Assembly: GCA_000004985.1 (NCBI GenBank)
Contig: GG739540.1
Source of the DNA: Naegleria gruberi
Lineage: Eukaryota
Length of the DNA: 1,130 nucleotides
Strand: one strand, 5' to 3'
Shown here: piece after piece, positions 1-1,130 of the stretch
How positions within the stretch are numbered: the first letter of the stretch is position 1
Layout of the letters: each line of letters opens with the position of its first letter
The notes under the pieces: model-generated
Database searches by the model: none
Told to the model about the DNA's origin: nothing
The model's input: the letters and a program-made list of their open reading frames with translations, nothing else
Program-made: the position numbers and the translations under genes

Positions 1-252
1 TTAACTGAGAGATTTGTGGAGGGGAACAGAGAGAGACGTATTCCTGCATCAGATTTACCATCCCTCCTACAAAAAGTTGGTCTTCCCGCTATACAAACTG
101 TTGAATGGCCAGAAGATGAACACAGAAAGAAGAAGGAAGCTGAAAGAGAAGAAAATGCAAAGAATACCAAGACTAAACGTACTCGTAAGATGAATGTCAA
201 GAAGATGACCAATAAGCACTTGGCTGAAGAATTTGTTGCTCACCAAAAGTAA
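1..252 (+). CDS. 3'-terminal fragment of a protein-coding gene; the 5' end lies upstream of the window. It encodes a basic Lys/Arg-rich C-terminal tail (...EDEHRKKKEAEREENAKNTKTKRTRKMNVKKMTNKHLAEEFVAHQK*), plausibly a nuclear or nucleolar RNA-associated protein.
   Basis: Frame 1 is open from base 1 (TTA ACT GAG ...) to TAA at 250-252. The GTG at 16 that the ORF track uses as a start is internal. G+C is about 40% here against about 23% in the flanking non-coding DNA. Codon choice is consistent with that of a highly expressed eukaryotic gene (AAG, AGA/CGT, GCT, GTT, CCA, CAA). The basic cluster KRTRK...KK resembles a nuclear localisation signal. I do not recognise the protein family from memory. 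Confidence 0.8.
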   Translation, partial: LTERFVEGNRERRIPASDLPSLLQKVGLPAIQTVEWPEDEHRKKKEAEREENAKNTKTKRTRKMNVKKMTNKHLAEEFVAHQK

Positions 253-691: not shown

Positions 692-955
692 ATGAATCTT
701 CCACTCAGAGATTCACATGCTCTTTATTTTAGCGAAGTCTCTTTTTTCACTGAGAATTTTCTTGTGGTGTTTAAGGTCCTCACTTTAATTGCTGCATTCT
801 CTCTCATCCAAAACAACCCTACTACAGAATTTAAAAAAAATGGTAAGAGTGATTATAGAAAATACACTCTCGTATTGAATGTAAAAGACGTTAATACTTT
901 ACCTAAAGGTCTCAAGAGCAAACTTGTTAAGAGTTTGGAAAATGTAAGTAACTAG
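692..955 (+). CDS. Hypothetical ORF of 87 aa (ATG 692 to TAG 955). It may be exon 1 (692..943) of a spliced gene that continues at 978. The N-terminal half is hydrophobic (FLVVFKVLTLIAAFSLI) and the C-terminal half is Lys-rich.
   Basis: This is the only long open frame in 253-1130 on either strand, and the minus strand here is full of stops. G+C is about 33% versus about 23% upstream. The ATG directly follows an in-frame TAG at 689-691. No Shine-Dalgarno sequence lies upstream. Chance expectation for an 88-codon open run in DNA this AT-rich is about 0.1-0.2 per window, so support is marginal. A GTAAGT sits at 944-949 immediately before the stop. Confidence 0.35.
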   Translation: MNLPLRDSHALYFSEVSFFTENFLVVFKVLTLIAAFSLIQNNPTTEFKKNGKSDYRKYTLVLNVKDVNTLPKGLKSKLVKSLENVSN

Positions 956-977
956 AAGTTTTTGGCTGACAACATAG
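944..977 (+). other. Candidate short spliceosomal intron. The alternative 3' end is 980.
   Basis: GTAAGT at 944-949 matches the canonical 5' splice site. CTGAC at 969-973 matches the CTRAY branch-point consensus. TAG at 975-977 and CAG at 978-980 lie 4-7 nt downstream of it. Removal keeps 692..943 (phase 0 at the AAT codon 941-943) in frame with 978..1130. Lengths of 34 to 37 nt are within the range of the shortest fungal, fission-yeast-type introns. Confidence 0.3.
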
Positions 978-1130
978 CAGAATTCATTTGTTGGGTTACA
1001 TGGACGGGTACTTAGAAATTATGATGATGAGAGAAAATGCTGCATTATTAAAATTGTAATGGGAAATCCATACGGAAAAGTATTGGATTGGGAACTTTCA
1101 GAAGATACTATAAAAAGTTGTTTCGAACTT
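978..1130 (+). CDS. Open reading frame (frame 3) that runs off the right edge of the window: QNSFVGLHGRVLRNYDDERKCCIIKIVMGNPYGKVLDWELSEDTIKSCFEL... It is a candidate downstream exon of the gene that starts at 692.
   Basis: After the TAG at 975-977 there is no stop through 1130. G+C is about 33%. GGA is used for Gly three times. This frame has no ATG before 1050 (the nearby ATG run at 1021-1029 is in a different frame), so as a standalone gene it would be only a 27-aa fragment; that favours an exon interpretation. It is in frame with 692..943 if 944..977 or 944..980 is removed. Confidence 0.25.

Follow-up and report, generated by a model that had tools for sequence, protein, structure and literature searches.

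Does the 87-amino-acid (aa) open reading frame (ORF) near the right end of this stretch of DNA stop where it appears to stop, or is its stop codon part of an intron? The stretch, 1130 nucleotides (nt) long and 32% GC, is called the window below. On its plus strand the ORF is closed by a TAG at 953-955, and a second open frame, following shortly after, runs past the window edge. We suggest that positions 944-980, which lie between the two frames and include this TAG, very probably represent a canonical U2-type GT-AG spliceosomal intron, located close to the 5' end of a plus-strand protein-coding gene. The layout of the putative split gene is as follows; on the minus strand this region holds only ORFs of 22-30 codons.

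692, plus strand: ATG of the first frame, with an in-frame TAG (689-691) immediately 5' of it.
692-955, plus strand: unspliced ORF of 87 aa, ending at the TAG at 953-955.
978-1130 (window edge), plus strand: downstream open frame.

The evidence comes from the window and from L001, a 4924-nt metagenome contig (ENA ERZ929261) that carries a homologous gene. The elements of the predicted intron are:

944-980, plus strand: intron of 37 nt, phase 0, GT-AG type, delimited by comparison with L001 and by the frame that is restored on removal.
944-951, plus strand: 5' splice site GTAAGTAA, identical to L001 at 8 of 8 bases.
953-955, plus strand: in-frame TAG, intronic, which terminates the unspliced 87-aa ORF.
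959-963, plus strand: T-run in the middle of the intron, conserved as TTTTT in the window and TTTTTT in L001.
966-970, plus strand: candidate branch site CTGAC, with A969 at 11 nt from G980.
975-977, plus strand: alternative acceptor TAG, which opens a TAGCAG tandem; window-specific, in frame and adding one Gln.
978-980, plus strand: acceptor CAG, common to both sequences; in L001 no other acceptor restores the frame.

A first-pass annotation of the window had proposed this intron, and on re-examination all the features it described were seen again at the coordinates given, with two counts to be corrected. The stop of the 87-aa ORF lies inside the candidate intron, GTAAGT (944-949) begins on a codon boundary, and both the TAG and the CAG acceptor are present. 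Excision of either 944..977 or 944..980 joins the two frames without a shift, and the joined frame stays open to the window edge. The annotation gave at least 138 codons for this frame, which is a miscount: 84 + 51 codons make 135 if the second exon starts at 978, or 134 if it starts at 981. The downstream frame is open to the edge as described, but its first ATG is codon 28 (1059), so that 27 codons, and not 24, precede it. The GTAAGT at 944 is the sole GTAAGT in the window on either strand.

How often would such an arrangement arise by chance? We compared the window with 5000 first-order Markov shuffles of itself, in a test that was picked after the data had been seen. A plain open frame of at least 88 codons is found in 22% of the shuffles, and the unspliced ORF is therefore unremarkable by itself. 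A GTAAGT...YAG segment of 20-60 nt whose removal leaves at least 135 open codons is found in 5 of the 5000, and one that also has a CTRAY inside in 1 of the 5000. By this post hoc test the spliceable configuration is well beyond chance.

The conceptual spliced protein gave one match in a search against 5.8 billion proteins, namely P0001, a 75-aa gene call on L001. By blastn and alignment, positions 802..1127 of the window align to L001 2167..2503, with no homology upstream of 802. Across the intron L001 reads ...AAGAGTTTGGAAAAT|GTAAGTAAAATAGAGGTTTTTTGCCAACAACAACATGGCAG|AATTCTTTTGTTGGA..., and it agrees with the window at both exon ends, in the eight leading bases of the intron and in the terminal CAG. 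Between the exons lie 37 nt in the window and 41 nt in L001 (2316-2356), with GT at 944-945 and AG at 979-980 (also 976-977) in the former and GT at 2316-2317 and AG at 2355-2356 in the latter. Neither length is a multiple of three (37 = 3n+1, 41 = 3n+2). The extended donor complementary to U1 small nuclear RNA (snRNA), GTAAGT or GTRAGT, is found in both sequences, GTAAGTAA being the same in each. Removal of GT...CAG from both gives the same junction, ...LVKSLEN|NSFVGLHGRVL..., and one continuous ORF; in L001 the spliced protein has 342 codons from ATG to TAA.

The two stretches that flank the predicted intron were compared with L001 as exons:

845-943, plus strand: conserved coding part of exon 1, KSDYRKYTLVLNVKDVNTLPKGLKSKLVKSLEN, 92.9% identical to L001 without an indel.
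981-1130, on past the right edge, plus strand: start of exon 2 (NSFVGLHGRVLRNYDDERKCCIIKIVMGNPYGKVLDWELSEDTIKSCFEL...), compared over 981-1127.

In exon 1 (845-943) there are 7 substitutions, distributed 2/0/5 over codon positions 1/2/3, and these make 4 synonymous and 2 non-synonymous codon changes. Exon 2 (981-1127) is 91.8% identical to L001, also without an indel, and its substitutions are distributed 2/3/7. Third positions thus hold 12 of the 19 exon substitutions (P = 0.007). The intron (944-980) is the least conserved part, with 76% identity and two indels of 1 and 3 nt. Counted as events, there are 4 indels per 80 aligned non-coding bases vs 0 per 246 exon bases (Fisher P = 0.003). Faster evolution of the intron than of the exons, with indels that are not multiples of three, is therefore seen, in one homologue only.

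Three checks that the first-pass annotation had set out for its intron can be read from the same alignment, and all three favour the intron. The exons are kept at 92-93% and the segment 944-980 at 76% with indels. The downstream frame is conserved as protein, 43 of 49 residues being identical between window and L001, and in L001 it is open for 313 codons to a TAA (chance about 7e-11). A homologue that ended at the position equivalent to 955 would speak for a genuine stop; L001 has no stop there, and its unspliced frame continues for another 39 codons in a wrong frame, as in P0001.

The two frames might instead be joined by programmed ribosomal frameshifting, or be one frame split by a sequencing error, as they overlap near 944-980 with an offset of +1 in the window. 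The displacement of exon 2 relative to exon 1 is +1 for the window and +2 (that is, -1) for L001, so no single frameshift mechanism or sequencing error fits both, and an intron does. Moreover, the window stop comes three codons past the exon end, and no conserved RNA structure is found at the site: the junction region of the window folds with z = +1.06, and the fold of L001 differs, with no structure in common. Programmed frameshifting would call for homologues that shift in one direction at a slippery site with a stimulatory structure; the two sequences differ in offset and have no conserved structure, and we regard both versions as next to impossible. As a separate observation, L001 2296-2376 has an unusually stable fold (-19.7 kcal/mol, z = -2.77), a hairpin that covers the 3' half of the intron and the start of exon 2 and that the window does not share.

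Other classes of intron were also considered. Group I and group II introns have a structured catalytic RNA core of hundreds of nucleotides; the segment here is only 37 nt and has no Rfam match, and a self-splicing intron was rejected. In the archaeal bulge-helix-bulge fold both splice points lie in 3-nt bulges. This motif is absent from the minimum-energy folds of the junction, which are unshared between the sequences, and an archaeal intron was rejected too.

A reading without splicing would be that of two separate genes, side by side or overlapping, in the DNA of a prokaryote, phage or virus, the upstream ORF extending to the spacer or to the TAA at 1057-1059 and the downstream one starting at ATG 1059. 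It is how L001 has been annotated automatically, as a 75-aa protein (P0001) and a 280-aa protein; the TAATG overlap is present in both sequences, and no protein of either has a eukaryotic domain match. In brief, P0001 reads through exon 1, then the intron, and then the first 26 codons of exon 2 out of frame, to the TAATG overlap. In the window an upstream ORF of the L001 type is unreadable, since the 37/41-nt difference shifts the frame and TAG 953 stops it; the P0001 frame is closed there. The stretch 981-1058 is approximately 94% identical (5 substitutions in 78 nt). In these 26 codons before the first exon-2 ATG, the exon-2 frame has 3 synonymous and 2 non-synonymous changes, whereas in the P0001 frame 5 of 5 are non-synonymous. 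An overlapping pair would have both ORFs intact and conserved in their own frames, and the two sequences do not show such a pair. We found no Shine-Dalgarno sequence before ATG 692 or ATG 1059, no sigma-70 promoter or terminator signals above shuffle expectation, and no matches in the phage, plasmid, viral, bacterial or archaeal collections. We consider two unspliced genes very improbable.

On the comparison of frames, we take P0001 to be an artefact that arose when genes were called in the prokaryotic manner. Misled by the TAATG overlap, the public gene caller divided the L001 gene, yielding a 75-aa chimera and a 280-aa fragment. It should be noted that this stop/start overlap (window 1057-1061, L001 2433-2437), between the out-of-frame ORF and the first exon-2 ATG, mimics bacterial translational coupling. 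The practical value for annotation is that a prokaryote-style caller gives two wrong proteins here, where the correct model would be one spliced protein of approximately 340 aa.

Which acceptor does the predicted intron use? L001 has TGGCAG where the window has TAGCAG, with TGG opposite the TAG at 975-977. The shared acceptor is thus the CAG at 978-980 and the conserved intron 944..980, and from this comparison the acceptor would be best placed at 980. The TAG could also be the main acceptor of a real intron, which would then be 34 nt long with the junction KSLEN|QNSFVG. The TAGCAG tandem allows either choice in frame, and 3' splice-site selection commonly favours the AG that comes first after the branch site. 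Only the CAG is shared with L001, and the TAG lies 8 nt from the candidate branch A, near the lower usable limit; we consider it unlikely to be the main acceptor.

The branch site is less clearly kept. The first-pass annotation had matched CTGAC at 966-970 to the CTRAY consensus, and the match is present in the window, but L001 retains it loosely: its counterpart is ACAAC, if the distance to the 3' end is held equal, or else CCAAC, which lies 3 nt farther upstream. Against the expected CTRAY or YNYURAY motif near the 3' AG, the finding is therefore CTGAC in the window and ACAAC or CCAAC in L001. We regard CTGAC as a plausible candidate branch site only.

Based on these observations we infer splicing at 944-980 and suggest the following steps. 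The U1 snRNA would pair with the perfect GUAAGU donor, the branch adenosine would lie within the CUGAC/ACAAC stretch, 11 nt from the 3' end, and the exons would be joined at 943|981 to give the ...LVKSLEN|NSFVGLHGRVL... junction. The window-specific TAG at 975-977 may serve too and would give a form with one extra Gln. Because its length is not divisible by three and a TAG lies in frame within it, retention of the intron would leave a transcript that encodes no more than a truncated product, as is usual in intron-poor eukaryotes. The predicted spliced sequence at 943|981 is GAGTTTGGAAAAT|AATTCATTTGTTGG, that of the alternative junction 943|978 is GAGTTTGGAAAAT|CAGAATTCATTTG, and the unspliced counterpart is GGAAAATGTAAGTAAC.

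The 5' end of the gene raises a second question, that of the start codon, for which three further features are needed:

692-841, plus strand: upstream part of the 692..943 ORF, 49 in-frame codons from the sole in-frame ATG (692); not conserved.
802-839, plus strand: conserved upstream element with a pyrimidine-rich stretch, CCCTAC(T/A)ACAG and (A/T)ATTTAAAAAAA, this last block also written (A/T)ATTTAAAAAAAATGG; aligns with L001 2167-2207.
840-842, plus strand: ATG conserved with A-rich surroundings; it starts the reading frame in L001 (2208) and is out of frame in the window.

The first-pass annotation had taken 692..943 as exon 1. Its part 845-943 is coding, but 692 to about 840 is without a counterpart in L001 and is probably not all coding; within 692-841, homology is absent upstream of 802. 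By the present comparison, 845-943 is the only part of the proposed first exon that we regard as demonstrably coding. The chance of 49 open codons in that specific frame, with an ATG directly after a stop, is about 0.013. The codon-usage score of 692-838 is weak, 0.10 vs 0.22-0.36 for exon 1, and not decisive, and the context of ATG 692 is not A-rich.

In L001 the protein starts with ATG GTA GGA AAG AGT GAT (MVGKSD) and continues as MVGKSDYRQY..., with no in-frame ATG farther upstream. At the same place the window reads ATGGTA----AGAGTGAT, a 4-nt deletion relative to ATGGTAGGAAAGAGT in L001 (window 840-850, L001 2208-2222). The deletion puts ATG 840 out of frame, its own frame stopping after 12 codons, so that ATG 692 is the only in-frame start in the window. 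This start-codon problem is the one real oddity of the locus. The window copy may start at 692 with a new hydrophobic N-terminal extension, it may be a disabled copy, or the four bases may be a sequence error.

The last two belong to a reading in which the intron is the same and the window copy is a disabled paralogue or pseudogene, or carries a sequence error at 844/845, ATG 840 being the ancestral start and the 692 frame accidental. ATG 840 stands in a conserved TTTAAAAAAAATGG context, which is also found before the next L001 gene, and it is in frame in L001. Homology stops at 802, the upstream neighbours differ between the loci, the codon usage of 692-838 is weak as said, and the spacer has other open runs, of as many as 73 codons. 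Conversely, no stop or frameshift interrupts the 84 conserved codons of the window gene, the substitution pattern is still like that of purifying selection, and the 49-codon extension, with its ATG right after a stop, would seldom be open by chance (about 0.013). We hold a disabled copy or an error to be a real possibility, though not the expected case.

The 802-839 element, which has a 3-nt indel between window and L001, is presumed to be a core promoter or 5' untranslated region. Its TTAAAAAAAATG context recurs 5' of the start codon of the next L001 gene. We also note that the 802-839 block, with tract, branch and CAG, could equally well be taken for an intron 3' end; upstream of it, no donor to match was found. 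The 4-nt deletion, for its part, creates a donor-like ATG|GTAAGA. We speculate that this may be a new splice donor; joined from there to CAG 980, the frame would be kept and read M|NSFVG....

Several other arrangements of the 5' end were tried. For a further upstream coding exon in the window only poor candidate donors were found. In L001, an upstream exon ending at a second GTAAGT (2044), with an in-frame 78-codon ORF that splicing would join to the first exon of the gene without a shift, was rejected; it lies inside an opposite-strand 95-aa ORF, which better explains the open frames. In that part of L001 (1770-2133) the 95-aa minus-strand ORF overlaps a 107-aa plus-strand ORF; the minus one looks more protein-like, and neither has a database match. 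A tiny intron right after ATG 840 (16 nt in the window, 20 nt in L001) does not restore the frame on hand translation and was rejected as well. In the spacer of the window, 486-602 is a 38-codon ATG ORF (MKYILILNNASQIWSNPSNGIYDEDVAFELRDDYDVQV) with a codon-usage score as high as that of real exons; it is not conserved in L001 and has no in-phase donor to the split gene. Other open runs in the spacer reach 73 codons.

Upstream of this spacer the window carries part of another gene:

1-252, plus strand: 3' end of the upstream gene, 83 codons with a K/R-rich tail and the stop TAA at 250-252; the frame is open from base 1 and runs off the left edge.

This segment has 40% GC vs 28% in the following spacer, and its codon-usage score is positive in this frame only. 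It is a neighbour gene, separate from the split gene, and no homologue of its protein was found in any search made. A suspected likeness of its tail to TFIIE-beta had no support in PDB sequence searches and was rejected. In L001 the gene next upstream is another one, oriented the opposite way, and the two loci are therefore not syntenic on that side. We rejected a 19-nt inverted repeat (790-808/1026-1044, 17 of 19 complementary) as a real element; it is found in 9% of shuffles and is absent from L001. In L001, 56 nt lie between the split-gene homologue and the next gene. The L001 ORFs of 481, 313 and 472 codons have no internal TAA or TAG, which indicates the standard genetic code there; a ciliate code was considered, and is unneeded. 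By eye, the C-terminal ~90 residues of the homologue (L001 3000-3277, HWSPEHIKLVLKYGVGLNEKQVSNLEISGHELESL...) are SAM-domain-like, with no Pfam support.

What does the gene encode? Pfam and NCBIfam searches with the spliced protein, each exon, the upstream ORF and all L001 proteins gave no match, and neither did PDB sequence searches with the window and L001 proteins. Word-indexed homologue searches returned P0001 only, an exact look-up of three window ORFs gave no record, and a full-text search for the L001 project accession was empty as well. An exhaustive HMMER search with the conserved 85-aa N-terminal part against 1.84 billion representative proteins returned P0001 and two spurious repetitive bacterial proteins. 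No further loci were found in the metagenome, viral and prokaryotic-genome collections, and none by blastn against phages and plasmids. A tRNA search found none, and Rfam at E up to 1 gave no match in the window and one chance-level match in L001. The AlphaFold2 model of the 85-aa conserved part had a mean predicted local distance difference test (pLDDT) score of 50 and was not used for a fold search. As judged from these searches, the gene is an orphan, its predicted protein being of approximately 340 aa by the L001 homologue, without detectable relatives or domains.

The neighbour ORFs are long and uninterrupted, start contexts are A-rich and the code is the standard one. The host would probably be a microbial eukaryote, with an AT-rich (32-35% GC), gene-dense and intron-poor genome. 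Its lineage could even be one unsampled at the protein level, either a compact intron-poor microbial eukaryote (a divergent parasite of microsporidian or apicomplexan kind) or a large eukaryotic DNA virus with a spliceosomal intron. This reading arises because five or six proteins have no relative among 1.8 billion representatives and no Pfam domain, and we consider it rather improbable. If it were true, the 37-41 nt GTAAGT intron would be one of few retained there. The intron would in any case mark the window and L001 as most likely eukaryotic DNA of an organism absent from protein databases.

Taken together, the comparative evidence for a spliceosomal intron at 944-980 is strong, but it comes from a single homologue. 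Some points weigh against our interpretation. There is one homologous locus, so that no more than two sequences are compared. Conservation of the branch motif CTRAY is not strict, and a spliceosome in the host is an assumption. The conserved start is out of frame in the window, and this copy might not be expressed as protein. The lack of any Pfam, PDB or other database relative for the window and L001 proteins is unusual for ordinary eukaryotic DNA. We nevertheless see in this locus an ordinary eukaryotic gene structure, with an ordinary intron in an unannotated orphan gene and no new mechanism.

How does this intron compare with known ones? Short fungal introns of the Schizosaccharomyces type have a CTRAY branch consensus, and the window has GTAAGT, CTGAC and YAG in the expected order and spacing. 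However, a length of 37 nt would fall at the extreme low end for fungal introns, L001 lacks CTRAY, and nothing links the window sequence to fungi. The TAGCAG at 975-980 resembles NAGNAG tandem acceptors, with two in-frame acceptors 3 nt apart, but in the window only, L001 having TGGCAG; use of both sites is a candidate only.

In the summary given by Mekouar et al. (2010, PMC2911113) of Jaillon et al. (2008), stop-free introns of 3n length are depleted, and introns with stops or of non-3n length mark retained transcripts for decay (PMC2911113). Both copies of the present intron are non-3n, and in the window copy a TAG stands in frame three codons from its 5' end. A single intron is consistent with this genome-wide trend and is no demonstration of it.

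Intron-poor lineages have strong GTAAGT donors, and introns of 25-36 nt are possible in them (Irimia and Roy 2008, PMC2483917). In Encephalitozoon cuniculi the introns have a mean length of 35.8 nt, and in Cryptosporidium 84% of introns start with GTAAGT (PMC2483917). The varying branch motif (CTGAC vs CCAAC/ACAAC) is unlike the strict branch consensus described for Encephalitozoon and Cryptosporidium, and none of the proteins considered here has a match in a sequenced member of either group. The likeness lies in other respects: the GTAAGT donor is perfect, the intron is 37-41 nt long and sits towards the 5' end of its gene, the neighbours are intronless (the 481- and 472-codon ORFs of L001), and the context is AT-rich and gene-dense. 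By analogy, we infer that intron-poor compact eukaryotes are the closest known setting for the predicted intron and may include its lineage.

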